Positions 4,063 to 62,502 of a stretch of DNA of 64,000 nt are shown here, one piece after another. The notes beneath the pieces are model-generated. The model searched no databases. It had not been told where the DNA came from and was given only the letters and a program-made list of their open reading frames with translations. A program made the position numbers and the translations under genes. The stretch is taken from NCBI GenBank assembly GCA_007376135.1, contig VMFR01000002.1, forward strand, positions 92,870-156,869, read 5' to 3'. Position 1 is the first letter of the stretch. Every line of letters begins with the position of its first letter. The DNA is from Parcubacteria group bacterium Gr01-1014_31 (lineage in GTDB: Bacteria; Patescibacteriota; Patescibacteriia; Buchananbacterales; GWA2-38-13).

Positions 4063-4560
4063 TTATTGCCCTACCCCGGCACCGAAGTGAGTGTGAACAC
4101 CGCCAATCATTTGCCGCACGCACCATTGCGCGTACATCTTGCCAAACAACCGTCCGAGCCACGCGTTCTTCGCGGGCAGGTCGTAGTCAATGAACACGCG
4201 CAGTGTTGCACTAGTTCCCTGCGGCCGGATCTCAAAACCCATCCGGTAATCGCCGACCACCAACAGCCGCGGCGTGCCGACCGTCTCCCAGGTTTTTGCG
4301 CGGGGCGGATCGCGGCGCATGACCACTTCGTGCAGGGACAATGACAGCCCGAGCACACGGCCGTGCATCCGGATATGCGAGCCTACCTTCTGGCCCCGTC
4401 CTTCGTCCAGCACCACCTCCATGCGACCGCCACCCATCATCCAGGAGGACTTGTTCATGTGCGAGGAAAAACTGGCGTGGTCGTCGGTGTACGCAAACAC
4501 CTGCGCCGGGAGCGCGGCGACGGAGATACTGGCTTCGTAATGTCGTTTGGCTTGGGACAT
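4063..4560 (-). CDS. SRPBCC (Bet v1/START-like polyketide-cyclase fold) family protein
   Basis: 165 aa. Overall pattern resembles the SRPBCC ligand-binding superfamily. Judgement by fold-family resemblance only. Confidence 0.45.
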   Translation of the reverse strand: MSQAKRHYEASISVAALPAQVFAYTDDHASFSSHMNKSSWMMGGGRMEVVLDEGRGQKVGSHIRMHGRVLGLSLSLHEVVMRRDPPRAKTWETVGTPRLLVVGDYRMGFEIRPQGTSATLRVFIDYDLPAKNAWLGRLFGKMYAQWCVRQMIGGVHTHFGAGVGQ

Positions 4561-4565
4561 ACGAG

Positions 4566-6662
4566 CTACAGGTGCAACCGCGATTCAACGCGCTTCAGGA
4601 GCACCGCGTTGGTGGCCACAATGATGGAGGAGGCGGACATCAGGAGCGCCGAGACCTCTGGCCGCAACGACCAACCCAGGGAACTATAGAATACCCCGGC
4701 GGCCACGGGAATGGCCAGCAGGTTGTACACGGCGGCCCAGAACAGGTTCTGCTTCATCTTCGTGACCGTGGCCTTGGAAAGCCGGATCGCAGCCACCAGG
4801 TCGTAAGGGTCGGACTTCATCAGTACGATGTTACCCGTCTCAATGGCGACGTCCGTACCGGCGCCGATGGCGATGCCAATATCCGACTGGGCCAACGCAG
4901 GGGCGTCGTTGATGCCATCGCCGACCATCGCGACCCGCTTGCCCTCATCCTGGAGTTTTTTGACGTACTTGGCCTTGTCTTCGGGCAGCACCTCGGCAAA
5001 GTAGCGATCAATCCCCAGGTCCGCGGAGATCGCTTTGGCCACTTGCTCATGGTCGCCCGTGATCATGGCAACCTCCATGCCGAGCTCCTTGAGTTTTTGG
5101 ATGGTCTTTTTGGCGGTCGGCCGCACGGTATCCGCCACGCCGATCACGCCGGCGACCTGCCCGTCAATGGCGACGATGCTGATGGTGTTCCCCGTGCCGA
5201 GGAGTCGGCCGAGTTCCTGCTGCAACGGCGAAAGGTCAATGTGGTGCTGCCGCATCAGGCGTTCAGTCCCCGCAATGACCGTTTTTCCGTCTGCCACCGC
5301 GCGGACGCCGTGGCCGCCAATGGACTCGAACTGTGCGACGCTTTTTTCGATGGAGATGTTGCGCGTTTTGGCCTCCTCGATGATAGCGAGGCTGATGGGA
5401 TGGTTGGAGTTGCGCTCCACGGCGGCCGTGTACGCGAGCACGTCCTCCACAGTGAAGGAGGAAGCCGCCACCACTTCGGTAACCCTGGGTTTGCCTTCGG
5501 TCAGCGTGCCGGTTTTATCCAGCACGATGGCATTGAGCCGCGAGGTGTTCTCCAGCGTGGCCGCGTCTTTGATCAGGATATTATGCTTGGCGCCCAAGCC
5601 GGTGCCGACCGCCACGGCCGTCGGGGTGGCCAGGCCGAGGGCGTCGGGGCACGCAATGACGATCGCCGAAACGGCGAACGTCAGGGCCGTCAGCAGGCCC
5701 GCCCCCGCGACGAAGTACCAGCCTACGAACGCCGCAGCGCCGGCGCCGAGCGCGACCACTACCAGCACCGCGGCGGCCTTATCGGCGATGCGCTGGCCGG
5801 GAGCTTTGGAATTCTGGGCGGTCTCGACCATTTTAATGATCTGCGCCAGCACGGTTTCCGACCCGACCTTCGTCGCCCTGAACTTCGCCGCCCCCGTCAG
5901 ATTGACCGACCCGCCGATGACCTTGGCGCCGGTCTTTTTCGCGACGGGAATGGACTCCCCCGTGACCAGCGACTCATCAATGGACGTTTCCCCCTCAATA
6001 ATTTCACCATCCACGGGCACTTTGTCGCCGGGCCGGAGCACGACCACATCGCCCCGCAGGATCTCGGAACTCGGTATGGTGACTTCCTGGCCATGACGGA
6101 TAACCTTTGCCTGGGGCGGCACGAGGTCAAAGAGCGCGCGCAAGGCGTCCGAAGTACCGCGCCTCGATTTCATTTCCATCCAATGGCCGAAGAGCACGAA
6201 CGTGACCAACAGCGCCGCTGCCTCATAGAAGGTCTCGCTCTCCGGCCGGATGACGGTGAGCAGTACGCTGAAGAGGTAGGCGGCCAGCACGCCGGTCGCG
6301 ATCAGGACCGACATGTTCAGCTTCCGGGCTTTGAGCGCGTGGTAGGTGCCGGTGATGAAGATCGAACCGGTCCAGAATACTACCGGCGTGGTGAGGAGGA
6401 ACAGGAGCCAGCTGACCGGGAGAGGGGTTGGGAGATCGAGTTTGAAGTAGTTGAGTCCCACCGGAGAGTAAAGAAAGATCGGCACCGACAGGATAAAGGA
6501 GATCCAAAACCGCCGGCGCATGTCCGCTTCCATCGCTTTCGCCATCTGCGGATTGGTCATGGCCGCGTCATGATCGGCATGGCTCAGGTGGCGGACGTCG
6601 GGAGCGGGCGTGGCGCTCGCAGGAGCTGCCTGGTGATGTTCGTGCGGGTCGGAGTGGTGCAT
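4566..6662 (-). CDS. heavy-metal (probably copper) translocating P1B-type ATPase with His-rich N-terminus
   Basis: 698 aa. DKTGTLT phosphorylation site, GDGINDAPAL hinge, TGES actuator-type region, eight predicted TM helices. N-terminus MHHSDPHEHHQ resembles CopB-type exporters. The TM6 motif reads CPD rather than the usual CPC/CPH. Confidence 0.9.
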   Translation of the reverse strand: MHHSDPHEHHQAAPASATPAPDVRHLSHADHDAAMTNPQMAKAMEADMRRRFWISFILSVPIFLYSPVGLNYFKLDLPTPLPVSWLLFLLTTPVVFWTGSIFITGTYHALKARKLNMSVLIATGVLAAYLFSVLLTVIRPESETFYEAAALLVTFVLFGHWMEMKSRRGTSDALRALFDLVPPQAKVIRHGQEVTIPSSEILRGDVVVLRPGDKVPVDGEIIEGETSIDESLVTGESIPVAKKTGAKVIGGSVNLTGAAKFRATKVGSETVLAQIIKMVETAQNSKAPGQRIADKAAAVLVVVALGAGAAAFVGWYFVAGAGLLTALTFAVSAIVIACPDALGLATPTAVAVGTGLGAKHNILIKDAATLENTSRLNAIVLDKTGTLTEGKPRVTEVVAASSFTVEDVLAYTAAVERNSNHPISLAIIEEAKTRNISIEKSVAQFESIGGHGVRAVADGKTVIAGTERLMRQHHIDLSPLQQELGRLLGTGNTISIVAIDGQVAGVIGVADTVRPTAKKTIQKLKELGMEVAMITGDHEQVAKAISADLGIDRYFAEVLPEDKAKYVKKLQDEGKRVAMVGDGINDAPALAQSDIGIAIGAGTDVAIETGNIVLMKSDPYDLVAAIRLSKATVTKMKQNLFWAAVYNLLAIPVAAGVFYSSLGWSLRPEVSALLMSASSIIVATNAVLLKRVESRLHL

Positions 6663-6670
6663 ACGGGAAG

Positions 6671-7411
6671 TTAATGAAAGAGGTATTGATGGAATAATTG
6701 TGCCTGGTCGACGATCACCTGGAGCACTATTTTTTCCTCACCGGATACGGCTCCGCCGGTCGGCAACAGGAGCACGCCGCGTTCCGGCGCTTGCGCATCT
6801 GAACTCCCGATAATATCGATGTTTGCGGGTGCAAGAGTATTCCCGGCGGCAAGGGCCTGCAGGATCGCTTTGTTGCTCAGGCCATTCGTTTGCCCGGGCC
6901 ACGCTTCCTCGGAATGAAAAAACTCATGGGTGGTCCGGGCGTTCCGCGGGTTGATGAAACGGAAAAGCCCCCACTTGGTTTTCGCGATCGATGTGGCCGC
7001 AATGCCGAGGAGCTGTTCAAATATGGCGTTCTTTTGCCGGTGCGTTATCTTTTCCCGGCGCAACAAGGTACTGGTCAGCGTCTTGAGCAGCGGGAGGCGG
7101 ACGTTGACCAGACCAATGTACTTCGCTGCGTCAAGGAGCCGGCCGTCCAGCTGCTGTAAATGTTCTTGCAACCGGATCTTTTCCCGCTCACGTTTTTTAA
7201 TTTCATTAACATGCATCTCATACGTGAGCCACGCCACGCCCATAACCAGCACCGTAACAATATTTTGGATGAAGGGCGATGACAATGAGAACAGGTGCCC
7301 GCGAATAATGTGCGGCTGAACGATGAGCACCGCGAACAGAACGAAGTAAATGATCTTTACAATACGGGACATATCGGAATGCGAACACGCATGGTAGCAG
7401 ATATTGGACAC
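6671..7411 (-). CDS. hypothetical membrane-anchored protein
   Basis: 246 aa. Two N-terminal TM helices, then a coiled-coil (NEIKKREREKIRLQEHLQQL) and a soluble domain. No recognisable family. The start may be the internal MSRIVK. Confidence 0.35.
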   Translation of the reverse strand: MSNICYHACSHSDMSRIVKIIYFVLFAVLIVQPHIIRGHLFSLSSPFIQNIVTVLVMGVAWLTYEMHVNEIKKREREKIRLQEHLQQLDGRLLDAAKYIGLVNVRLPLLKTLTSTLLRREKITHRQKNAIFEQLLGIAATSIAKTKWGLFRFINPRNARTTHEFFHSEEAWPGQTNGLSNKAILQALAAGNTLAPANIDIIGSSDAQAPERGVLLLPTGGAVSGEEKIVLQVIVDQAQLFHQYLFH

Positions 7412-18915: not shown

Positions 18916-19025
18916 GGTATGCCCGGTAGTACAATGGATATACTGGGCAGAAGAGCGGTGCGGCAGTAATTAATTACGCTGGAACGCGAACACCAGTAAA
19001 CAACCATTGTCCTGCCGGGTATGCC
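18916..19025 (+). promoter_or_regulatory. conserved inverted-repeat 5' leader element (copy C); 3' arm contains the start codon of pilin paralog 9
   Basis: 5' arm GGTATGCCCGGTAGTACAATGG (18916-18937) and 3' arm CCATTGTCCTGCCGGGTATGCC (19004-19025) form a 22-bp stem (with G-U pairs) around an AT-rich core. An extended -10 TGTATAAT (18902-18909) is 6 nt upstream. The same architecture occurs at 55591-55691 and 60110-60224. Confidence 0.5.
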
Positions 19026-19431
19026 CATCGCAGAGCGCGTCGCCGTCAAACTCGCCCAGCTCTCCCCCGATATTCGGGAGTCGCAAGGGCCGCTGTGGCG
19101 CGCGATAAAGAACCAGTACACCCCGTTCAACCTGTTCTTCGGCCCGCCCTCCGACCCGCGCGTCGTGGCGGCGCTGGTCATCAAGGGGTTCATGTCGCTG
19201 CTGGGCATCTTGTTTTTGCTCTACGTGGTGTACGCGGGGTTCATGTGGATGACGGCCAACGGCGACGAGGAAAGGATCCGCAAGGCGAAATCCACCATCA
19301 CCACCGGCGCATTCGGGGTGCTGGTCATCCTGGCGGCGTACTCCATCGCCCAGTTCATCACCACGGCGTTCGGCTGCGCGACCGCCACCTACGGCGAGTG
19401 GTGCCTTTTCTTCAACAACCTGACGTGGTAG
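19021..19431 (+). CDS. divergent VirB2/TrbC-like pilin family protein without N-terminal signal peptide; paralog 9
   Basis: 136 aa. The conserved hairpin LLYVVYAGFMWMTANGDEERIRKAKSTITTGAFGVLVILAAYSIA is present, but the N-terminus MPIAERVAVKLAQLSPDIRES is not a signal peptide. C-terminal CATATYGEWC. Confidence 0.55.
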   Translation: MPIAERVAVKLAQLSPDIRESQGPLWRAIKNQYTPFNLFFGPPSDPRVVAALVIKGFMSLLGILFLLYVVYAGFMWMTANGDEERIRKAKSTITTGAFGVLVILAAYSIAQFITTAFGCATATYGEWCLFFNNLTW

Positions 19432-49314: not shown

Positions 49315-50460
49315 CTACTGTTTGATCGGCATCACCAAATAGAGGTAATCGGTCCGTCCGCGGGGTTTGAGCACGCACGGGCTGGCGTTGTCGATCAGGT
49401 GCAGCTCCACCTCCTCGGTTTCGATATTCTGCAGGCCGTCGAGCAGGAACCGGTAGTTCAGGACCGTGCGGTTCTCTTGGCCGGTCACCTCGGCGGCAAT
49501 GCGGGAAGTGTTCTCCCCCAGTTGGGCGTTGGCGGCCGACAAGCTGAGCGAGCGCTGGGTAGGCATAACGGCCAGCGCCACGTCATAAATGCCACTCCGT
49601 GAAAAGAGGCTGGTGGTTTTTGTGGCCTTTGTCAGATCCACGGTCGCGGCGCGCGCCGTAGTGGCGTACTGCTTGGGAATGATCTGCTCATAGTCAGGGT
49701 ACTGGCCCTCGATCACCCGCGAGACGATCTCCACCGTCCCAAGCGTGAAGAGCACCTGGTTTTCCGCCACGAACAGCTCAACCCGATCGACGGTCGCCAA
49801 TGCGGCGGGATCTTTGAAACTCGTGAGAATGCGGAGGAGCTCCTGAAGCGCACGAGCGGGAACGATGACCTTCTGCGGCTTGGTCGGCGCGGTCAGCAGC
49901 CGCACCTTTCTCTCCGCCAGGCGATAGCTGTCGGTCGCCGTCAACGTCAATTGGTTGCCGCTGGTGGTCAGGAGCACGCCATTGATCTCCGGCCGAGTCT
50001 CGCTCATGGAAACGGCGAATATCACCTGGGCAATGGCGGCACGGAGGTCGATAACCGAGCAAGACAGGGTGTTGGTGCGCTCCACGGTGGGAATGAGGGG
50101 AAAATCGGCCGCTGCGATTCCCTTCATCTTCATCTCTGAGCTCCCACCCTTCACAACCATTGACCCCCCGTTCTCGCCACTCGCATTCTCCAGCGCGATT
50201 TCCACGCTATCTTTCGGCAAGAGACTGACGTAATCGGCGAAAAGCTTGGATTGCACCGTGAACGACCCCGGGCGCTCGATCTTCCCTCGCACCTGGCAAC
50301 TGACGCCGATCTCTAAATTGGTCGCGGATAGCTTAATGCCGTTCTCTCCCGCTTCGATCAGCACGTTATTCAACACCGGTAGGTTCGTATTCTTGGCCGC
50401 GACGTGGGCGACGGTCATTAAACCCTGGCTTAAATTTTCTTGAGTAACAACGAATTTCAT
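49315..50460 (-). CDS. dnaN: DNA polymerase III subunit beta (sliding clamp)
   Basis: 381 aa. MKFVVTQENLSQGL...LPVLNNVLIEA N-terminus and three-domain length. Directly downstream of dnaA. Confidence 0.9.
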   Translation of the reverse strand: MKFVVTQENLSQGLMTVAHVAAKNTNLPVLNNVLIEAGENGIKLSATNLEIGVSCQVRGKIERPGSFTVQSKLFADYVSLLPKDSVEIALENASGENGGSMVVKGGSSEMKMKGIAAADFPLIPTVERTNTLSCSVIDLRAAIAQVIFAVSMSETRPEINGVLLTTSGNQLTLTATDSYRLAERKVRLLTAPTKPQKVIVPARALQELLRILTSFKDPAALATVDRVELFVAENQVLFTLGTVEIVSRVIEGQYPDYEQIIPKQYATTARAATVDLTKATKTTSLFSRSGIYDVALAVMPTQRSLSLSAANAQLGENTSRIAAEVTGQENRTVLNYRFLLDGLQNIETEEVELHLIDNASPCVLKPRGRTDYLYLVMPIKQ

Positions 50461-50805
50461 ACGAGGGATAACAGGGGTTTGATAACGGTGATAATTATAT
50501 TGATACTAGGTAGTAATAGTAGTAGGCGGCAGGGATAAGTGGACAAGTGGGAGATTCGACTGTGTGAGTTCGTTTACGGCGAGTTACGATGGGATAAGTC
50601 CGGGATACACGGCGTGGGTTGGCCGTGGATGGATTGGGTATGAATGTCGCGGCGGCGGCTGACGCCGCGTCGGCAGTGCATAGGTCAGTGGACAGTTCCC
50701 AGGTTATCCAACTGAGAGGCGGGGCTTTTACCCCACCTCTTCCCCACGCTGTCCCCGCATCTTCCCCAGTTTCCGGGCCCATGCCGTTGGCACGGCAACG
50801 GCTCG
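50461..50805. other. dnaA-dnaN intergenic region with AT-rich stretch and repeated GGATAA/GATAAC DnaA-box cores (candidate oriC segment)
   Basis: gGGATAACa, tTGATAACg, gGGATAAGt and gGGATAAGt within 140 bp, plus AT-rich GATAATTATATTGATACTAGGTAGTAATAGTAG. No full 9-mer consensus box. Confidence 0.35.
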
Positions 50806-52197
50806 TTAACTGGTGATGTTGGTCATGTTGAAGAGCCGCTGGCGGATGACACCGACGTCTTGCTGGAGTTTCTCGTCCACCTGCAGTTCCCGGCTGATCT
50901 TGAGATACGCGTGCATGGCGGTGGTGTGGTCGCGATTGCCGATTTCGGAGCCGATCGCGGGGTAGGAGCACTTGGTCTCCTCCCGCATCAGATACATGAT
51001 GATCTGCCGCGGCAGCGCCAGGTTCTTTTTCCGGCAGCTGCCCATGATATCCTCGGTTTTTAGGTCAAAATATTCGATCACGGCGGAAATGATCTGCCGC
51101 GGCGTGAGGGATTTTCGGGGGCCGTCGCCGCTGAGCGTTCCCAGCATCTTTTTCACCCCTTCCAAGGTGATGGGGCTGCGGTCCAGCTGGTGGAACGCGA
51201 CGATCCGGTTCAGCGCTCCTTCCAACTCGCGGACGTTGTTGGCGACCGACGTCGCTACATAGTGCAGAATTTCCCGCTCCATGGCGAAGGCGCGTTCCCG
51301 GCACTTGGTCTCAAGGATCGCCAGCCGTGTTTCCAGGTCCGGGGTGCCGACGTCGGCGATCATCCCCCATTCAAAGCGCGATACCAGCCGGTGTTCGAGC
51401 GCCGGGATGGCCTTTGGCGGTCGGTCCGAGCTGATGACGATCTGTTTATTATTCTGGTGCAGCGCGTTGAAGGTATGGAAGAACTCTTCTTGCGTGCCTT
51501 CTTTCCCGGCGAGGAACTGGATATCGTCGACCAGGAGGACGTCGACCGAGCGGTAAACGTTCTTGAAGCGCGACGTGACGTTGGAGGAAATAGAGCGGAT
51601 GAAATCGTTGATGAATTTTTCAGAGCTGACGTACAATACTTTGGCGCCCCCCTGCCGGCGCGCCAGATGGTTGCCGACGGCCTGCAGCAGGTGCGTTTTG
51701 CCCAAACCGACGCCGCCGTAGATGAACAATGGGTTATACACGCGACCGGGTTTGTTGCAGACGGCCAAACAGGCGGCATGTGCCAGCTCATTGGCCTTGC
51801 CGATGACGAAATTTTCAAAGGTGTAGCGCTGGTTGAGCCCGAGTTCGTTCGGGGTTGCCTCGCCCCCGTCGTCGGCCGCAGTCGGTGTTGCAACCGTTAC
51901 CGCCGCCGTGATCTCAACGACCGGTGCGGCGGCGCGGGGTCCGGTTTCAACCTTGTAAATAACCTCGCGCACGCGGTTTTCCGAGACTTTTTGCAGGGCG
52001 CGCAAAATGAACGCGTGATATTTCTTTTCAAACCACGCTTTGGTGAACGTATTGGGAACGCCGACAATGACCCGCTCGCCTTCGGCGGAGGCGATGAAGG
52101 TGTTTTTGAACCAGGTCATGAAATTGGCCCGGCTCAAGGTCAACTCCAATTCCCCCAGCGTGGCCTGCCAGAGTTGCTGATGATCGATCATACTCAA
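50806..52197 (-). CDS. dnaA: chromosomal replication initiator protein DnaA
   Basis: 463 aa. AAA+ Walker A GGVGLGKTHLL, sensor motifs and C-terminal DNA-binding domain (...AIGSEIGNRDHTTAMHA). Confidence 0.9.
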   Translation of the reverse strand: MSMIDHQQLWQATLGELELTLSRANFMTWFKNTFIASAEGERVIVGVPNTFTKAWFEKKYHAFILRALQKVSENRVREVIYKVETGPRAAAPVVEITAAVTVATPTAADDGGEATPNELGLNQRYTFENFVIGKANELAHAACLAVCNKPGRVYNPLFIYGGVGLGKTHLLQAVGNHLARRQGGAKVLYVSSEKFINDFIRSISSNVTSRFKNVYRSVDVLLVDDIQFLAGKEGTQEEFFHTFNALHQNNKQIVISSDRPPKAIPALEHRLVSRFEWGMIADVGTPDLETRLAILETKCRERAFAMEREILHYVATSVANNVRELEGALNRIVAFHQLDRSPITLEGVKKMLGTLSGDGPRKSLTPRQIISAVIEYFDLKTEDIMGSCRKKNLALPRQIIMYLMREETKCSYPAIGSEIGNRDHTTAMHAYLKISRELQVDEKLQQDVGVIRQRLFNMTNITS

Positions 52198-52583
52198 ATG
52201 TGGGACGCGGCGGCTGCCACCAAGGAATGGCGGCAGGCCGGTGAGATGATGGCTGGGGTATCAGCGACGAGTGCCGGCTGACGACAGCCCGTCGCGATAA
52301 AATTTTTTTTTCAGCTCCTGTTTTTTCAACTTGGACACCCGGAACAGTGATTTCTTTTTTGAGCTCCCCCATAGTATACCACGAGGGTTGGCGTGTCAAA
52401 GCTGACATGCCAACTGTGCATTTGTGTACAAGCTGTGGAGTGCATGTGCATATTGTAAATCCGCCCGACATTTGAAGCCGCGATGATTGACGGTTTGCCA
52501 TTCCCCTGCTAGGATAGGTGTACCTTGAGCGCTCGGCGGACCTCCGCCCCGCGCGCAAACGAATTCAATCCTCCTTTTTGCTT
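52198..52583. other. dnaA-rpmH divergent intergenic region: candidate oriC/DUE
   Basis: Classical oriC location. A/T-rich run (AAAATTTTTTTTTCAGCTCCTGTTTTTTCAACTT...TTTCTTTTTTGAG) and degenerate DnaA boxes (TGTGTACAA, TGTGCATAT, 7/9 each). Confidence 0.4.
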
Positions 52584-52721
52584 ATGCCGAAACGGACGTA
52601 CCAACCGAAACGCCGCCGCCGCCAGCGCGTGCACGGATTCCGCCGCCGCATGCGGAGCAGCAATGGCCGCAACGTGCTCAAGCGCCGACGGACCCGGGGG
52701 CGCCATCGCTTGACGGTATAG
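52584..52721 (+). CDS. rpmH: 50S ribosomal protein L34
   Basis: 45 aa. [25 protein letters not shown] is near-universal L34 sequence. Start at the internal ATG of the 67-aa ORF. Confidence 0.85.
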
Positions 52722-52757
52722 TTCTGACGGGGCATTCGCCCCGCTGGTGCCGTCGCT

Positions 52758-53102
52758 ATGTTGTCCCAACACTACCGCCTGACGAAGCGTGGAGAGTTGA
52801 TGGCCGTGCTCCGGCACGGCGCTATGGTGCGGGGCGGCGGTTTGACGGTACGCGTCCTGCCGACCGGCCGCCAGGGCAGCCGTTTTGCTTTCGTTGTTTC
52901 CAATAAAGTCTCCAAGCACGCCGTGCAGCGCAACCGTTTGCGTCGGCAGTTGCGAGAGCTGGTGCGTGCCATGCTGCCGGAGGTGGCGGGCGGTTACGAT
53001 GTGGTGGTCACGGTGCAGCCGGGACGTCCGGTGCGTACTACCGTTGCGCTCAAGGATTCACTGGCCATTGCCCTGCGCCGCGTTCGTCTCCTTTCCCTAT
53101 GA
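52758..53102 (+). CDS. rnpA: ribonuclease P protein component
   Basis: 114 aa, basic. RNR motif region SKHAVQRNRLRRQLRE. Follows rpmH. Confidence 0.8.
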   Translation: MLSQHYRLTKRGELMAVLRHGAMVRGGGLTVRVLPTGRQGSRFAFVVSNKVSKHAVQRNRLRRQLRELVRAMLPEVAGGYDVVVTVQPGRPVRTTVALKDSLAIALRRVRLLSL

Positions 53103-53353
53103 ACCGATTTTCCCGGCGTTTGGCCTCAGCCATGGCTGCGGGTATCCGGCTCTACCAGCGGACGTTTTCCATGGACCACGGATTACTGAGCCGCATCATT
53201 CCCGGCGGACGCTGTCGGTACTGGCCGAGCTGTTCGGAGTACGGACGCCAGGCGTTCCGGCGTTACGGCCTGCGTCGCGGGCTGTTGCTCACATTGTGGC
53301 GCATCGGGCGATGTAATCCCTTCAGCGCCGGCGGCGTTGATCCACTTCCCTAG
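53099..53353 (+). CDS. yidD: membrane protein insertion efficiency factor YidD
   Basis: 84 aa. YQRTFSMDHGLLSRIIPGGRCRYWPSCSEYGRQAF...GRCNPFSAGGVDP matches YidD/haemolytic domain. Overlaps the rnpA stop by 4 nt. Confidence 0.8.
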   Translation: MNRFSRRLASAMAAGIRLYQRTFSMDHGLLSRIIPGGRCRYWPSCSEYGRQAFRRYGLRRGLLLTLWRIGRCNPFSAGGVDPLP

Positions 53354-53446
53354 TTTGTAGGAGTTAGCTTGTGGCTGGTAGGCAATCGTTGCCGGCCCGC
53401 CCTACAAGCTACCAGCTAAAAGCTACAAGCCTTACCTCCACGCATC

Positions 53447-54193
53447 ATGGGCCAACTCTTCCACACCGTGCTCTACCAGCCGATCTTCAATTTGCTGGTT
53501 ATTTTGTATAACCTCGTCCCCGGCCACGACCTGGGCGTTAGCATCCTCCTGTTGACCGTCCTGCTGAAAGTGCTGCTCTACCCGATCGCGGCGCGGTCCA
53601 TCCGCATCCAGCACCAGATGCAGCGGCTGCAGCCCCAGATCTCTGCCCTGCAGCAGAAATTCAAAGGGCAGAAGGAGCAGCTGTCGCGCGAGCTGATGGA
53701 GTTGTATAAGAAAGAAAAGGTGAACCCGTTCTCGTCGTGCCTACCATTGCTCATCCAGCTCCCGTTCCTCATCGCCGTGTACCGCGTGTTCATCGACGGT
53801 CTGAAACCCGGCCCCGTGGAAGGATTGTATTCGTTCGTTACTAACCCTGGCCCGTTGAATCCCGTGGCGTTCGGCTTTTTGGATCTGGCCGACGCCCGGA
53901 ACTGGGTGCTGGCGATCCTCGCCGGCGGCGCGCAATACTGGCAAGCCAAGATGCTGCAGACGAAAAAACCGCCGGTGCACGGGGCGGGCACCAAGGATGA
54001 AGATATGGCCGCCGCCATGAGCAAGCAGATGGTGTATATGATGCCGGTGATGACCGTGTTCATTAGCGCCAGCCTGCCGGCTGGCCTTGCGCTGTACTGG
54101 CTCGCGACGACCTTGTTGAGCGTCGCCCAGCAGCACCTGATGTTGCGTCCCAAGTCTGCCTTGCCGCCCGCGACCCCGGCTTCTCAGGTTTAG
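53447..54193 (+). CDS. yidC: membrane protein insertase YidC (short, Gram-positive-like form)
   Basis: 248 aa. PIFNLLVILY...LLLTVLLKVLLYPI...QPQISALQQKFKG...CLPLLIQLPFLIAVYRV are YidC/Oxa1 core motifs. Confidence 0.85.
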   Translation: MGQLFHTVLYQPIFNLLVILYNLVPGHDLGVSILLLTVLLKVLLYPIAARSIRIQHQMQRLQPQISALQQKFKGQKEQLSRELMELYKKEKVNPFSSCLPLLIQLPFLIAVYRVFIDGLKPGPVEGLYSFVTNPGPLNPVAFGFLDLADARNWVLAILAGGAQYWQAKMLQTKKPPVHGAGTKDEDMAAAMSKQMVYMMPVMTVFISASLPAGLALYWLATTLLSVAQQHLMLRPKSALPPATPASQV

Positions 54194-55535: not shown

Positions 55536-55564
55536 TTGACAGCAAAAACGTTTTCGCGTATGCT
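55536..55564 (+). promoter_or_regulatory. candidate sigma70-type promoter for rpsT (TTGACA-17-TATGCT)
   Basis: TTGACA at 55536-55541, 17-nt spacer, TATGCT at 55559-55564. About 125 nt upstream of the rpsT ATG. Confidence 0.4.
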
Positions 55565-55590
55565 GTCGACTATTCTTACCGCCTCTGCCC

Positions 55591-55691
55591 GGTAGGACAA
55601 CGGGCTGGCGAGGTAGAGGTATAAACCCGACTGAGAATTATAGCGTCGTACCGCGAAGATTACACATTTGACCGTTGTCCTACCGGGTATG
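55591..55691 (+). promoter_or_regulatory. conserved inverted-repeat 5' leader element (copy A); 3' arm ends in the rpsT start codon
   Basis: GGTAGGACAACGG (55591-55603) pairs perfectly with CCGTTGTCCTACC (55672-55684), followed by GGGTATGCC with ATG at 55689. A 68-nt lower-GC core lies between the arms. Confidence 0.5.
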
Positions 55692-57054: not shown

Positions 57055-59802
57055 TTACTGTTTGCCTTTTATTTCGTCAACCGGCTTGAGGTCGCCCCAG
57101 TTTTTGCCGACTTCGACATGCACGAGGATCGGGACACGGAGCTGGTAGACGCCCTCCATGGTTTTCTTGACGAACCGCGCCAATGCAGCGGCGTCGCTTG
57201 CCGGTACTTCGAAGACCAGTTCGTCGTGCACTTGCAGTAGCATCCGGGCGGCCGGACAAACGGCCGGCAGCCGGTCGTGGACGGCGATCATCGCCAGCTT
57301 CATCAGATCGGCGGCCGTGCCCTGCACGGGGTGGTTGATGGCCGCGCGTTCGGCGCCTGAGCGGATCTGCGGTGCGGAGCTCGCAATTTCGGGCAGGTAG
57401 CGACGCCGGCCGAAGATGGTCTCCACGAATCCGTGCTCCAGCGCCAGCCGCTTGGTGTCCTCCAGGTAAGCGGCGATCTTCGGATGCAGCCGGAAGTAGG
57501 TATCAATGAAGGTTTTGGCTTTGTCGCGGGTGATGCCCTGGCGCTGGGACAGCCCGACCACGCCCATGCCGTAGATGATGCCGAAGTTCACTTCTTTCGC
57601 CGTTCGTCGCAATTCTTTGGTGACCTGCGCCACGGGCACATCGTGGATCTCGGCGGCGGTTCTCGTGTGCACATCCTCGCCGCGGGTGAACGCGGATATC
57701 ATCGTCGGGTCTTGCGCCAGCGAGGCGATGATGCGCAACTCGATCTGATTGTAGTCGGCCGACAGCAGGACGTTGCCGCGCTCGGCGATGAACGCTTTCC
57801 GAATTTGGCTGCCTAACGGGGTGCGGATGGGGATGTTCTGGAGGTTGGGGTCGGAGGATGACAGCCGGCCGGTGGCGGCGATGGTCTGATTGAAACTGGT
57901 GTGGAGCCGTTGATCGCGGGGAGACACCAGCTGGGGCAGCGCTTCCAAATAGGTGGACTGCAGTTTCGACAGCTCACGATATTCCATGATGAGCGGGATG
58001 ATCTGGTGCTGGTCGGCCAATTTTTCCAGTTCGCCCGCCGCCGTAGAGATGCCGGTTTTGGTGCGGCCCAGCCCGACGGTGGAGATTTTGAGCTTGCCGA
58101 ACAGGACCTCTTTCATCTGCAAGGGGGAGGCGATGTTGAACGGTACGCCCGCCAGGTCGTGGATCTTGGATTCCAGTTTGGCCAGCTGTTTGCCGACAGT
58201 CGTCGACATTTTTTTCAGGAACGCCGTATCAAGTTTGATGCCGTGCCGCTCCATTCGCGCCAGCACCTGGATGAGCGGCAGTTCGATCTTTTCCAGCAAG
58301 CCGAGCTGGTTTTTATTCTCCAGTTCGCGGTGCAGGCGAGAAAACAGCCGCAGCGAGTAGTCGGCATCGGCGCAGGCGTAGGGCACCACCTGGTCCAGCG
58401 GCACCTCGGTCATCGAGCGCTGCTTGGCCCCGCTGCCGATGAGGTCGGTGATTTGCGTCATTTGGAAACCGAACTCCGAGAAGCTCAACCCATCAAGACC
58501 GTGCTGCCGGGAACCGGGGTTCAGCAGGTACGACGCGATCATGGAGTCAAAAGCGATGCCGGAGAGCGGCAGCCCCGCGGTTTCGAGGCTGTGGAGGTCG
58601 AATTTCAAATTATGCCCTGTTTTCGGAATGCCAGCGTCGGACAGCATCGGTTTGAGTTTGGCCAGCAGTTCGGGTTTGGGCAGGACGAACGCCGCCTCCC
58701 CTTCCGCCCAGGCCAGGCTGATGCCGACCAGGTCAGCCGTCAGGGGATCCAGGCTCGAGGTCTCCGTGTCCACGGCGATCAGGGGTGCGCGGCGGATGTG
58801 CGACAGCACATCATCCAGTTTGTTCGCATCATCCACCAGCCGGTAGCCGGGCAGCAGTTTCGTGGGCGCGTCGTTCTGGGCGTTGCCCAACGCGAGCGCC
58901 CCCTGGGCGTCGGCGACGTGCTTGCTGGCGGGTAGCCGGTTGATGAGCGACTTGAACTCCAGCTCGGAGAATAGCCGTATCACGGCTGCCGGGTCGTAGG
59001 CCCCGACCTCGCACTCGTTCAGATGGAATTTGACCGGGGCATCGGTCGTGATCTTGCACAGCCGTTTGGCCAGGAGGGCTTTTTCCCGATGCTCCTGCAG
59101 CAGCGCGCGCGTGCGGACGGGAATTGCGGGGTCCTCCACGTGTTGGTAGAGGTTTTCCAGGCTGCCGAATTGTTGCAGCAGCGCGGTGGCCGTTTTTTCC
59201 CCGATGCCGGGTACGCCCGGGATGTTGTCGGACGGGTCGCCTCGCAACGCCTTGTAGTCCACCAGCTGTTCGGGGTTGAGGCCGAATTTTTCCCGCACCG
59301 CGGCCGCATCGTAGGTAACGGTGTCGGCGATGCCCTGCCGCAGGGCGTACACGGACACGCCCGGCGCAACCAGTTGAAGTGCATCCTGGTCGCCGGTGAC
59401 CACGATCCGCTCCAGGCCGCGGGCGGCGGGGTTCGCAACCAGGCTGCCGATCAAGTCGTCGGCTTCCAGGCCCGGCTGTTCAAACAGCGGCAGTCCGAAG
59501 GCGGCAACCACTTGCCGGATACGGTCGAACTGGTCGTAGAATTCCTGGGGTTTTTTGACCCGTTGCGCTTTGTACTCGGGGAATTCGTGGTGGCGGAAAT
59601 TTTTGCCCGGCGCGTCCATGGTGACGGCCAGATACCGCGGTTTCAGGTCCTTGATGACCTTGAGGAGGATGCTGGCGAACCCGAAGACCGCGTTGACCAA
59701 TTCACCCTTGCTGTTTCGCATGGTCTGGGGCAGCGCATGCCAGGCGCGATGAATAATTGCATTTCCATCGATGATCACCAGCTTGTCTTTTCGGTCGCTC
59801 AT
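57055..59802 (-). CDS. polA: DNA polymerase I
   Basis: 915 aa. 5'-3' exonuclease N-terminus (KLVIIDGNAIIHRAWHA), 3'-5' exo region, and polymerase motifs A, B and C (DYNQIELR, RRTAKEVNFGIIYG, VHDELVFE). Confidence 0.9.
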   Translation of the reverse strand: MSDRKDKLVIIDGNAIIHRAWHALPQTMRNSKGELVNAVFGFASILLKVIKDLKPRYLAVTMDAPGKNFRHHEFPEYKAQRVKKPQEFYDQFDRIRQVVAAFGLPLFEQPGLEADDLIGSLVANPAARGLERIVVTGDQDALQLVAPGVSVYALRQGIADTVTYDAAAVREKFGLNPEQLVDYKALRGDPSDNIPGVPGIGEKTATALLQQFGSLENLYQHVEDPAIPVRTRALLQEHREKALLAKRLCKITTDAPVKFHLNECEVGAYDPAAVIRLFSELEFKSLINRLPASKHVADAQGALALGNAQNDAPTKLLPGYRLVDDANKLDDVLSHIRRAPLIAVDTETSSLDPLTADLVGISLAWAEGEAAFVLPKPELLAKLKPMLSDAGIPKTGHNLKFDLHSLETAGLPLSGIAFDSMIASYLLNPGSRQHGLDGLSFSEFGFQMTQITDLIGSGAKQRSMTEVPLDQVVPYACADADYSLRLFSRLHRELENKNQLGLLEKIELPLIQVLARMERHGIKLDTAFLKKMSTTVGKQLAKLESKIHDLAGVPFNIASPLQMKEVLFGKLKISTVGLGRTKTGISTAAGELEKLADQHQIIPLIMEYRELSKLQSTYLEALPQLVSPRDQRLHTSFNQTIAATGRLSSSDPNLQNIPIRTPLGSQIRKAFIAERGNVLLSADYNQIELRIIASLAQDPTMISAFTRGEDVHTRTAAEIHDVPVAQVTKELRRTAKEVNFGIIYGMGVVGLSQRQGITRDKAKTFIDTYFRLHPKIAAYLEDTKRLALEHGFVETIFGRRRYLPEIASSAPQIRSGAERAAINHPVQGTAADLMKLAMIAVHDRLPAVCPAARMLLQVHDELVFEVPASDAAALARFVKKTMEGVYQLRVPILVHVEVGKNWGDLKPVDEIKGKQ

Positions 59803-60109
59803 ACTATTGCAGCGTTACCGCCTGCCCCGTACGAAGCTGAGGGCAGAAATTTGTCTCTCCTGGAGCGAGCCGCAGGCGGTTGACCGCGCCGGAAAGACTG
59901 TAGCCTTTCTGTAAACCCAAGCCCGCGAGCTTTCGTGCGGGGTCGATGATGACCAGCTTGTCCTTTTTTTCAGCCATAACGGTAGTATAGCACCCTGGGT
60001 GCGGCCGCAAACCCGGCGTTTCCCGTTGTTTTTAAGCCGACGATTTGCTATTTTGACAGCGTTACCGCGGGGGGTGGCAGTTGCTGCGCACGCCCCGCGT
60101 TCCCTATCT

Positions 60110-60224
60110 GGTATGCTCGGTAGGACAACGGATCTCACGGAGCAAGGCATACGATACACGGATTAATTATTTTTTGGTCCTAAACGCAATTACTCCATTC
60201 GGCCGTTGTACTACCGGGTATGCA
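60110..60224 (+). promoter_or_regulatory. conserved inverted-repeat 5' leader element (copy B); 3' arm contains the smc start codon
   Basis: GGTATGCTCGGTAGGACAACGG (60110-60131) and CCGTTGTACTACCGGGTATGCA (60203-60224, ATG at 60220). The ACAACGG/CCGTTGT pair carries a compensatory change relative to copy C (ACAATGG/CCATTGT). Confidence 0.5.
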
Positions 60225-62502
60225 TTTAGAATCCCTGGAGATCACCGGTTTCAAGTCATTCGCCACTACCACCGCGCTGAAATTCCCGGCTGCGGCTGCT
60301 GGTACTCGTGGCGGCATTACCGCCATCGTCGGGCCCAACGGTTCGGGCAAGTCCAACATCACCGACGGCATCCGCTGGGCGCTGGGCGAGCAGTCGCTGA
60401 AAACCCTGCGCGGCAAGAAGGCCGAGGATGTCATCTTTTCCGGCTCGGACAAGAAGGCGCGGCTGGGGTTGGCCGAAGTATCGCTGGTGCTCAACAACGA
60501 GGACCGCGCGATGCCCGTGGATTTCCCCGAAGTCGTCATCACCCGGCGGCTGTACCGCAACGGCGAGGGAGAATATCTTTTGAACAAGCAGCCCATTCGG
60601 CTGACCGACGCGGTGCTGCTGATGGCCAAAGCCAATTTCGGCCAGAAGAGCTACTCCGTCATCGGCCAGGGCATGGTGGATGCCATCCTCAACGCCACTC
60701 CCCAAGAGCGCAAGGAATTCTTCGAGGAGGCCGCCGGCGTCAAGCAATACCAGCTCAAGCGCGAGCAGTCGGTGCGGAAACTGCAGCACACTTGGGAGAA
60801 CATCAGGCAGGCGGAAGCGGTCATCGAAGAGATCGAGCCGCGGCTGCGTTCCCTGCAGCGGCAGGTGAAAAAGCTCGAACAGCGCGAGCAGCTCATCCAA
60901 GAATTGTCCGGCAAGCAGCGCGAGTACTATGGCCGCGCGTGGCGTGCCATGCAGGAGGAGGAGTGTGTGGTCAAACCGCGCGTGCAGGAGCTCACGGGAC
61001 AGCTGCAGGAGCAGACCCGCCAGCTGCAAGCGGTCCAACAGCAGCTTGACCGGTTGGAGCAGGAGGACCGTCGGACCGAGGTATTCAACCGGCTGCAACA
61101 GCGCTACCAGAAAGCCGTGGAGGCCAAGTCCCAGCTGCGGGAAACCCAACTTTTGCTGCGCAACAAGATAGAATTGGCCAAGACCAAGGCCGCGCTTTCC
61201 GCCATTCCCGTGCCGCTGCCCGAGATCGTTACCCGCCTGGAGCGCGTGGCCGCGACCTACGATGATTTTTTACAGCAGCTGTCCGCCGCCCGGAAGCCCG
61301 AGGACCTCGCGCGGCTGCAGGAGCGCGCCAAGACCGTGAGCGGAACGTTGCGCGAGCTCTTGGCCGAGCTGCAGCACGGGAAGAAGCAACAGACGGCTGC
61401 CGTGGACCCGCAGATGGTCGCCGACCTGGAGCGCGCGAGCGGCAAACTGGAAGCGCTCGAAGCGGAGGTTGTTTCCGCGCAGCGGGAGATCACCGAGTTC
61501 AACACCACCGAGGAGGCCAAGCGCGGGAAATTTTTCGACCTCCAGCGCCAGTTCCAAGCCCGGCAGCAGGAATTGAATGCGACCGCCGCCCAGCTGTCCG
61601 AGTTGCGAGTGGCGATGGCCAAATTGGACACGCGGCGCGAAGCATTGGAAGAAGAGGTGAAGACCGAGCTGCAGTCCACCGCGTGGCTGCACGACTACCA
61701 GCCCGCCGGCGCGGGCGAGGACCCGCAGCTGAGCTCAAGCGTCCACCAGTTGAAGCGCCAGCTGGAGTTCATCGGCGGCATTGAGCCCCAGACCGTCAGT
61801 GAGTACCACCAGACCAAAGAGCGTTACGATTTTTTGAGCACCCAGGTTGCCGATCTGCGCACGGCGCTGGAGCAGCTGCGCACGGTCATTGAGGAGTTGG
61901 ATGGAACCATTCACCGGCAGTTCCACGACTCGTTCCGCCAGATCAACCACGAATTCGGGCGCTACTTCAAGGTATTGTTCAACGGCGGAAAAGCGGAACT
62001 GGACGCCATCACCCAGGAGGTGGCGGAGGCCGAGGAGGAAAAGCAGGTGGAGGCTGCCGCCGAAGGCGTGGAGGTTGCCGATGAAGCCGACCAGGAGGAA
62101 GAGGAGATTAGGCGGCTCTTGCGCGGTCGCACCGGCAAAGTGGTTGTTGGCGTGGAGATCCGCGCCACGCCCCCGGGCAAGAAGCTGGTGTCGGTGACCA
62201 TGCTGTCGGGCGGCGAGCGGGCGCTCACGTCCATCGCGCTCATTTCCGCCATCATTGCCAACAACCCCTCGCCCTTCGTGGTGCTCGATGAGGTGGATGC
62301 CGCTCTGGACGAGGCCAATTCCGAACGGTTTGGCGCCATCCTGGAGGAGCTGTCCGGCAAGACCCAGTTCATCGTCATCACCCACAACCGCGCCACCATG
62401 CACCGCGCGGCGGTTCTCTATGGCGTGACCATGGGCGACGACGGCGTGTCGCGTATCCTTTCGCTGCAGCTGGAGGAGGGGGAGAAATTGGTGAATCGGT
62501 AG
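60220..62502 (+). CDS. smc: chromosome segregation protein SMC (short form)
   Basis: 760 aa. N-terminal Walker A GPNGSGKSNI. C-terminal signature LSGGERALTSIAL and Walker B VLDEVDAALD. Long coiled-coil middle. Located upstream of rpsP and the KH-protein gene, as smc is in many bacteria. Shorter than canonical SMC, with no obvious hinge. Confidence 0.7.
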   Translation: MHLESLEITGFKSFATTTALKFPAAAAGTRGGITAIVGPNGSGKSNITDGIRWALGEQSLKTLRGKKAEDVIFSGSDKKARLGLAEVSLVLNNEDRAMPVDFPEVVITRRLYRNGEGEYLLNKQPIRLTDAVLLMAKANFGQKSYSVIGQGMVDAILNATPQERKEFFEEAAGVKQYQLKREQSVRKLQHTWENIRQAEAVIEEIEPRLRSLQRQVKKLEQREQLIQELSGKQREYYGRAWRAMQEEECVVKPRVQELTGQLQEQTRQLQAVQQQLDRLEQEDRRTEVFNRLQQRYQKAVEAKSQLRETQLLLRNKIELAKTKAALSAIPVPLPEIVTRLERVAATYDDFLQQLSAARKPEDLARLQERAKTVSGTLRELLAELQHGKKQQTAAVDPQMVADLERASGKLEALEAEVVSAQREITEFNTTEEAKRGKFFDLQRQFQARQQELNATAAQLSELRVAMAKLDTRREALEEEVKTELQSTAWLHDYQPAGAGEDPQLSSSVHQLKRQLEFIGGIEPQTVSEYHQTKERYDFLSTQVADLRTALEQLRTVIEELDGTIHRQFHDSFRQINHEFGRYFKVLFNGGKAELDAITQEVAEAEEEKQVEAAAEGVEVADEADQEEEEIRRLLRGRTGKVVVGVEIRATPPGKKLVSVTMLSGGERALTSIALISAIIANNPSPFVVLDEVDAALDEANSERFGAILEELSGKTQFIVITHNRATMHRAAVLYGVTMGDDGVSRILSLQLEEGEKLVNR

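Follow-up and report, generated by a model that had tools for sequence, protein, structure and literature searches.

A palindromic repeat at the start codon of smc in a Parcubacteria bacterium, probably a non-autonomous mobile element

In a 64,000-nucleotide stretch of DNA from Parcubacteria group bacterium Gr01-1014_31 (hereafter, the window), a long inverted repeat runs up to the start codon of smc. The question that it raises is whether it belongs to this gene as a leader, as proposed in the initial annotation, or reached the start of smc from elsewhere. We found that this repeat, referred to as copy B, belongs to a repeat family, that its site is filled in one species and empty in another, that a short target is duplicated at its ends, and that these ends can pair. 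With a probability of about 0.8, we consider copy B to be a non-autonomous palindromic element of the MITE or REP-doublet type, which would have inserted into the TATG of the smc start and duplicated it.

The inverted repeat and the start of smc

The two arms of copy B, GGTATGCTCGGTAGGACAACGG (60110 to 60131) and CCGTTGTACTACCGGGTATGCA (60203 to 60224), form 17 Watson-Crick and 3 G-U pairs over 22 positions, G60124/A60210 and G60110/A60224 being the two that do not pair. An inverted-repeat search delimited 19-nt arms that are 84% complementary and lie 71 nt apart. The plus-strand RNA folds at -41.9 kcal/mol compared to -25.4 ± 3.2 kcal/mol for shuffled sequences (z = -5.2), and 0 of 200 shuffles reached the native energy. 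The inverted repeat reported in the initial annotation is thus real. At its left end, the direct repeat reaches GGTATGC (60110 to 60116), the extension beyond TATG probably being due to chance. The features of the locus and the other window copies are collected in Table 1.

The ATG at 60220 to 60222 had been proposed as the smc start and turned out to be the true one, since it opens an SMC protein of 760 aa starting with MHLESLEITGFKSF..., the N-terminus and length of which agree with those of hundreds of CPR SMC proteins, and homologues begin at the same residue. Close SMC homologues in Patescibacteria all measure 740 to 820 aa, and an SMC with a short coiled coil is typical of the clade. Between the arms lies an AT-rich core, GGATTAATTATTTTTTGG (60160 to 60177). 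Alignment of the interior with those of the two other window copies revealed similarity limited to short motifs; the core motif said to be common to two copies was recovered as ATTAATTA, in the region 60160 to 60177 and at 18968 to 18977.

Table 1. Features of copy B, of smc and of the two other copies in the window
Feature	Position	Strand	Remarks
Copy B, 103 bp	60116-60218	+	Located before smc; member of a three-copy window family
Left target copy, TATG	60112..60115	+	Holds the original smc ATG (60113-60115); single copy in the sister species E14 (contig L083)
Left terminal inverted repeat, CTCGGTAGGACAACGG	60116..60131	+	Contains GTAG; family consensus CCCGGTAGTACAAC
Interior of copy B, 71 nt, variable	60132..60202	+	From alignments with the other window copies
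Right terminal inverted repeat, CCGTTGTACTACCGGG	60203..60218	+	From repeat search and alignments
Right target copy, TATG	60219..60222	+	ATG 60220-60222 is the present smc start
17-codon ORF, MLGRTTDLTEQGIRYTD and stop	60113..60166	+	Opened by the stranded old ATG; read directly
smc, short 760-aa CPR-type SMC	60220..62502	+	Pfam SMC_N, AAA_23
Second window copy, 98 bp	18922..19019	+	67.5 bits; flanks TATG 18918-18921 and TATG 19020-19023
Third window copy, 100 bp	55588..55687	+	77 bits; flanks TCTG 55584-55587 and TATG 55688-55691

A repeat family spread across CPR bacteria

Scanning the window for the 14-mer CGGTAGGACAACGG with 2 or fewer mismatches returned three loci only, each time as an inverted pair, and a covariance model of the family recovered exactly three copies in the 64 kb, the same as those of the 14-mer scan, scoring 67 to 77 bits on the plus strand and 29 to 39 bits on the minus strand. 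The second copy lies upstream of a pilin-like membrane ORF (19021 to 19431). The third precedes rpsT, encoding S20 (ATG at 55689), and is located downstream of a promoter, TTGACA-17-TATGCT (55536 to 55564).

Among species-representative genomes scanned for the 3' arm followed by ATG, the MAG E14 (JAUSGZ01, GCA_030648715.1), representing a sister species, displayed seven sites, and the element was also present in one Moranbacteria and one Uhrbacteria MAG. A metagenome scan for both arms found it in 54 contigs, many of them groundwater or sediment CPR, leading to about 55 distinct family copies in CPR metagenomes and MAGs. Their consensus is yATG-CCCGGTAGTACAAC-(50-90 variable nt)-GTTGTACTACCGGG-yATG, with an element size of 75 to 116 bp and terminal inverted repeats of 14 to 16 bp. 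Copies can be dense, with three in the 64-kb window, three in 8 kb (L023) and three in 2.9 kb (L033). In 33 of 33 aligned copies, the 5' arm has GGTAG and the 3' arm CTACC, an invariance that the search pattern imposed in part; GCAG, GATAG and GTATG variants occur among copies identified independently of it. Within one genome, the ends of the copies are conserved and their interiors are unrelated.

In about 70% of the roughly 55 copies, the ATG situated two bases past CCGG is the start of a recognisable gene. At least 35 unrelated genes are preceded by the element, including rpsT, rpsU, efp, pth, rnpA, trpS, guaA, tpiA, fba and smc, as well as uvrD/pcrA helicase, dnaE, mutM, the CCA-adding enzyme and hrcA; the functions found downstream range over translation, replication, repair, glycolysis and the envelope. 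Other arrangements also occur. Two tandem elements with one TATG in common between them precede hrcA (L048, 2715 to 2927), and in L067 (860 to 930) a solo arm has a short hairpin of variant sequence, CCCGGTACTACAAT...ATTGTAGTAACCGGG, nested beside it. In AT-rich CPR contigs (L030, L051, L059, L061, L076 and L035), copies do not abut an ATG; some of these are followed by AGGAGG and then an ATG about 20 nt downstream, others by a U-run or a small terminator hairpin, and the latter may be terminators or stand-alone transcripts.

Rfam 15 contained no match at gathering score and only chance microRNA matches at E values up to 10. Viral contigs (624 kb), each with an exact 14-mer arm match, served only as a negative control and gave 70 single 14-mer matches, zero elements and no covariance-model match. 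The literature searched on the motif sequence, CPR RNA motifs, CPR MITEs and start-codon MITEs yielded nothing relevant, and this palindromic repeat family spread across CPR bacteria is apparently undescribed.

Most copies harbor an ATG in the 5' arm, and in copy B the 17-codon ORF that it opens ends in the AT-rich core, as might be expected of a leader-peptide device in which a conserved peptide, MPGSTT..., translated from the upstream ATG controls the downstream start. We consider such a device extremely improbable. Across 40 copies there is no conserved ORF: the reading frame measures 7 to 28 codons or is open-ended, phases 0, 1 and 2 are all found, and frame 0 is no more open than frame +1. 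Nor is the ATG constant, as it is CTG in the rpsT copy and ATC in the uvrD series. Finally, the upstream ATG is accounted for by target duplication, and the ORF at 60113 is a by-product of insertion that is not conserved in the family.

Filled and empty sites, target duplication and transposition

E14 shares 97% identity with the window in SMC and 88 to 94% identity in DNA. Its smc locus (contig L083) is an empty site, ...CTATCTGGTATGCATTTAG..., with a single GGTATGC. At the junction, E14 reads ...CGCGTTCCCTATCTGGTATGCATTTAGAATCC..., as opposed to ...CCCTATCTGGTATGC followed by the 103-bp element (TCGG...) and GGTATGCATTTAGAATCC... in the window. The window thus carries a 107-bp insertion, consisting of the 103-bp element and a duplicated TATG. 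Of the aligned bases just upstream of the element, 145 of 147 are identical, and BLAST of the window against L083 gave two collinear blocks with a 13-nt overlap at the junction. The length of the duplication at this locus is ambiguous, 3 to 7 bp, and is most simply 4. Since filled and empty sites differ by the element and the duplicated TATG, this is the signature of a transposable repeat.

Searching with simulated empty sites located a second, independent pair at the ATG of another gene, with L038 filled, L040 empty and the same junction; here, the empty site is CATG and the right flank TATG, so that a 4-bp duplication needs one later substitution. Family-wide, 26 of 52 copies have identical 4-nt flanks, versus 16.4 expected; 2000 shuffles gave 22 at most. 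Flanks other than those of ATG starts match too (CTTG with CTTG), and CATG is matched by CATG in 3 of 3 full-length left flanks.

In relatives with 81, 76 and 56% SMC identity, no copy was found in 55 kb, the rpsT and smc loci included. Synteny at these graded smc homologues is kept: polA and smc are divergent, and S16 and a KH protein come next. Judged from the outgroups only, the difference at smc would be a gain in the window lineage and not a precise loss in E14. The rpsT copy is kept in E14 and absent in L080. As the sister species lacks the element at smc and the next relatives lack it at all their loci, the smc element is dispensable. In a strain variant from another sample (L005, 35 to 943), an insertion sequence with an rve integrase, unrelated to the palindromic element, precedes the rpsT promoter at the place taken by the bactofilin gene in the window.

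These comparisons bear on the proposed role as a leader of smc. What stood of it is that the repeat ends exactly at the ATG and lies very probably in the 5' UTR, where the stem takes in the AUG; what fell is the dedication to smc, the gene of the sister species being devoid of the element and the same element preceding at least 35 unrelated genes. A cis-regulatory leader specific for smc, whether a riboswitch, an attenuator or a protein-binding leader, would fit the strong sense-strand fold (z = -5.2), the sequestered AUG and a model score on the sense strand twice that on the antisense strand. It is nevertheless highly improbable: the element is missing at orthologues of 97, 81, 76 and 56% identity, with the E14 empty site in direct contradiction, the genes that it precedes have no one function or pathway, its interior is not conserved, and Rfam offered no match even at E = 10.

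The hexamer TATGCT (60112 to 60117) had been put forward as a possible -10 box. This suggestion was not borne out, since prediction returned no sigma-70-like promoter in 59900 to 60300 and these bases are unchanged in the E14 empty site; TATGCT is the left duplicate of the start-codon context. A promoter inside the element or its arm (TACAAT, TACTAC or TATGCT at 60112) is likewise unsupported, the good promoter of the rpsT copy lying upstream of the element.

We propose that the element inserted into the TATG of the smc start and that the tetranucleotide was thereby duplicated. The right TATG now provides the start codon, joined straight to codon 2 so that smc is intact, and the left TATG leaves the old ATG stranded upstream. 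Transcription presumably runs from the unchanged smc promoter region through the element to the ATG, so that the element would be part of the 5' UTR. There, the two ends of the element and the duplicated target, itself nearly palindromic, would form a hairpin stem of about 20 bp burying the AUG, which would have to be exposed by breathing, by processing or by ribosomes on the upstream ORF. In the outer stem, GGUAUGC pairs with GGUAUGC because a nearly palindromic target was duplicated, and an mRNA hairpin burying the start codon is thus an automatic consequence of insertion. The G-U pairs of the outer stem being a side effect of the duplicated target, and five copies having sense-strand C-A mismatches, the evidence that the sense-strand RNA is the relevant form is weaker than it appears at first look. 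Since the duplicated target rebuilds the ATG, essential genes survive insertion at their start, and a palindromic repeat can occupy the starts of smc, rpsT, efp, dnaE and trpS without disrupting them. A single mobile repeat would also explain the three look-alike "leaders" of the window, one of them polymorphic between sister species, shifting their interpretation from regulation to genome dynamics.

Copy B and its relatives display the properties by which a MITE is operationally defined, namely terminal inverted repeats, target duplication, small size, absence of coding capacity, multiple copies and filled/empty polymorphism. The mobilising enzyme would act in trans. In the 614 kb searched, neither a transposase nor an autonomous element with matching ends came up, and no arm pairs lay at kilobase distance; Pfam analysis of ten large window ORFs revealed no autonomous partner. 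One observation speaks against simple insertion: the orientation of the interior is constant relative to the downstream gene (9 of 9 copies in one subfamily) although the ends are symmetric, which needs either selection or a strand-specific mechanism.

A strand-specific, single-strand mechanism is what a REP/BIME/REPIN-type origin would provide, in which two inverted GTAG-tagged repeats form an ssDNA hairpin that is mobilised by a single-copy HUH tyrosine transposase (RAYT) and not by a DDE enzyme. GTAG/CTAC is indeed found near the outer end of each arm, and the inverted doublet makes one hairpin around a poorly conserved, still pairing spacer of 50 to 90 bp, much as REPINs and HH dimers have GTAG-tagged arms in an inverted doublet with a variable spacer of 20 to 100 bp and compensated pairing (PMC3116915, PMC3733652, PMC8266576). 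REP/BIME/REPIN sequences also resemble the family in their tandem clusters, their patchy occurrence among species and their long persistence with conserved ends (PMC3116915, PMC3733652, PMC8266576), and tandem and nested arrangements are present here. Moreover, in L043, L036 and L067 the 5' arm continues into its own small palindrome, GTAG-TACAAC-N3-TTGTAC. However, each REP repeat is itself a short palindrome with a stem of 5 to 13 bp, whereas the single arms of the three window copies (A, B and C) are not self-contained palindromes and an own partner is found only in L043, L036, L067 and L060. In addition, a clean 4-bp flank duplication is a hallmark of DDE enzymes and is not described for REPINs, and the CPR family resides at the 5' ends of genes, in contrast to the 3' ends or random extragenic positions of REP/BIME/REPIN sequences. 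No RAYT or IS200-like gene turned up in the 614 kb of incomplete genomes, where a weak tblastn test with an IS608 TnpA query gave nothing below E = 3. We hold this origin to be possible, if on balance unlikely.

Among MITEs, the closest parallels are Correia/NEMIS of Neisseria and ERIC/RU of enterobacteria (PMC3184786, PMC2229807). Like the CPR family, they measure about 100 to 150 bp, have terminal inverted repeats and a short target duplication, occur in many intergenic copies, are polymorphic between filled and empty sites in close relatives, and form long hairpins when cotranscribed with the adjacent gene. The CPR family differs in its target, YATG and not TA; in that about 70% of its copies sit exactly on a start codon, which is replaced by its duplicate; in that the interior is not conserved within a genome; and in its occurrence in several CPR lineages. 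No parent IS is known for it. Rickettsia palindromic elements likewise measure about 100 bp, occur in a reduced genome and insert at positions where essential genes stay functional (PMC3733652). These elements lie in frame inside coding sequences and are translated, whereas the CPR family stops at the start codon, in the 5' UTR; the terminal tags differ as well, RPE-4 and RPE-6 ending in CGTC and the CPR family carrying GTAG.

Start codons, pairing and constraint

Only 1 of 35 window gene starts has a Shine-Dalgarno sequence, against a background of 10.7%. At the 35 ATG starts, position -1 is T in 22 (TATG) and C in 7 (CATG), and position +4 is C in 20. Window leaders are pyrimidine-rich, and the relative L080 resembles the window in all these respects. 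The preferred target of the element, TATG followed by CATG, is thus the preferred start context of the host, and we estimate that start codons make up about half of the TATG sites open to insertion without gene breakage in such a compact genome. The association with start codons would mostly arise because the target coincides with the start context and because insertions inside genes get lost. In most copies, -10-like hexamers lie 3 to 20 nt upstream of the left ATG or 5' arm, which suggests that the targeted genes had very short leaders.

Two further roles for the repeat in translation initiation were rejected. As only 1 of 35 window starts has a Shine-Dalgarno sequence, its lack is not special to the genes with the element, which speaks against the hairpin as a substitute for it. 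Complementarity of the arm to GUGCUACAAUGG, which we take to be a conserved 16S segment, extends over 8 contiguous nt only, and most family members have CAAC and not CAAUGG.

We then considered pairing across the family. In 33 oriented copies, a 23-pair stem is paired in 84% of cells, compared to 27 to 40% with the partners slid. The stem core was fixed by the search patterns and is uninformative for covariation. The pairs just inside it covary, pair 24-117 being CG in 20 copies, UA in 8 and UG in 3. Within the core, the copy L065 (3177 to 3274), found by the model only, shows compensation, with UAUGACAAC pairing with GUUGUCAUA. Such in-core compensations indicate that hairpin formation, beyond sequence alone, has been selected or inherited.

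This pairing also bears on whether the arms act as double-stranded DNA, either as operators of a DNA-binding protein or as core sites of a site-specific recombinase. The conserved arms do contain the palindromes CCGG and GTAC, and joined ends would give CTACCGGG-TATG-CCCGGTAG, resembling a recombinase core site. Compensated pairing, however, reaches non-conserved positions, which is needless for a dsDNA site, the arm spacing varies from 75 to 116 bp without helical phasing, and target sites lack arm-like sequence. We therefore regard a dsDNA site as very improbable.

Some copies show signs of constraint. The uvrD copy occurs in five diverged contigs with the same one-base loss in the old ATG, which points to descent from a single insertion; in these orthologues, the arms are invariant, the interior is diverging, and the inner hairpin displays compensating changes. 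In the rpsT copy, the window and E14 agree at all of the 3' 55 nt, compared to about 10% difference in the adjacent coding sequence. Such constraint would be absent from an insertion that is purely selfish and decaying, and it does not bring back a leader specific for smc. It could result from co-option as a 5'-UTR control element, in which the hairpin tunes translation or stability by clamping the AUG and the mRNA 5' end; variants of this idea could involve a dsRNA factor of the RNase III/Mini-III type or a switch between the long stem and a proximal decoy. Consistent with co-option, the orientation to the gene is constant, the inner stem pairs covary, the upstream hexamers would place the stem at the extreme 5' end of the mRNA, and many copies have a proximal 3'-arm copy that might compete for the 5' arm (L067, L060, L075, L077, L022, L029 and L043). 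On the other hand, the element is dispensable, as E14 lacks it at smc and the next relatives lack it at all loci, the preceded genes have no common function, what is conserved is a regular helix and not a pocket, and sense-strand C-A mismatches recur (five copies, 5' GGCAG variants). Some copies, furthermore, precede a Shine-Dalgarno sequence plus ATG or a terminator and not an ATG directly. Taken together, co-option appears rather doubtful. AUG-sequestering 5'-UTR hairpins, such as translational operators and RNA thermometers, similarly pair the AUG and the preceding bases and here, too, no Shine-Dalgarno sequence is involved; they are gene-specific and conserved in orthologues, whereas copy B is portable and missing from the closest orthologue.

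A further reading combines mobility and use. The element would home to start codons by strand-specific insertion beside the YATG of genes with very short leaders, bringing its own ATG and 5' UTR, and would be kept as a switch of translation or stability. We judge this to be quite unlikely. If true, it would explain the fixed orientation, the invariant arms of old copies and the enrichment of essential genes, the switch being the long stem versus decoy pairing in CPR hosts without Shine-Dalgarno sequences.

The family offers natural gene pairs that differ in whether a 20-bp stem covers the AUG, in hosts lacking Shine-Dalgarno sequences, and such filled/empty pairs are a ready test of how their ribosomes find start codons. 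In CPR genomes, these repeats will also mislead screens for RNA motifs and the calling of start codons.

Several other features of the window were recorded. By synteny with the annotated contig L083, the region 49315 to 54193 contains dnaN and dnaA on the minus strand, then rpmH, rnpA, yidD and yidC on the plus strand, and the replication origin is probably near 52.2 to 52.6 kb. Two ORFs overlap on opposite strands, one of 777 aa (4341 to 6674, plus strand), without Pfam match, and one of 698 aa (4566 to 6662, minus strand). Upstream of smc, polA proper occupies 57055 to 59802 on the minus strand, starting with MSDRKDKLVIIDGNA, and next to it a 57-aa ORF (MAEKKDKLVIID..., 59804 to 59977, minus strand) is a duplicated fragment of the polA N-terminus. 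This small ORF is preceded by TATACT-N6-ATG, a leaderless-type arrangement, and is also called in E14 (L083, 9693 to 9866) and in L086. A 12-nt repeat, CAGCGTTACCGC, flanks the duplication of the polA fragment, at 59810 to 59821 and 60057 to 60068.
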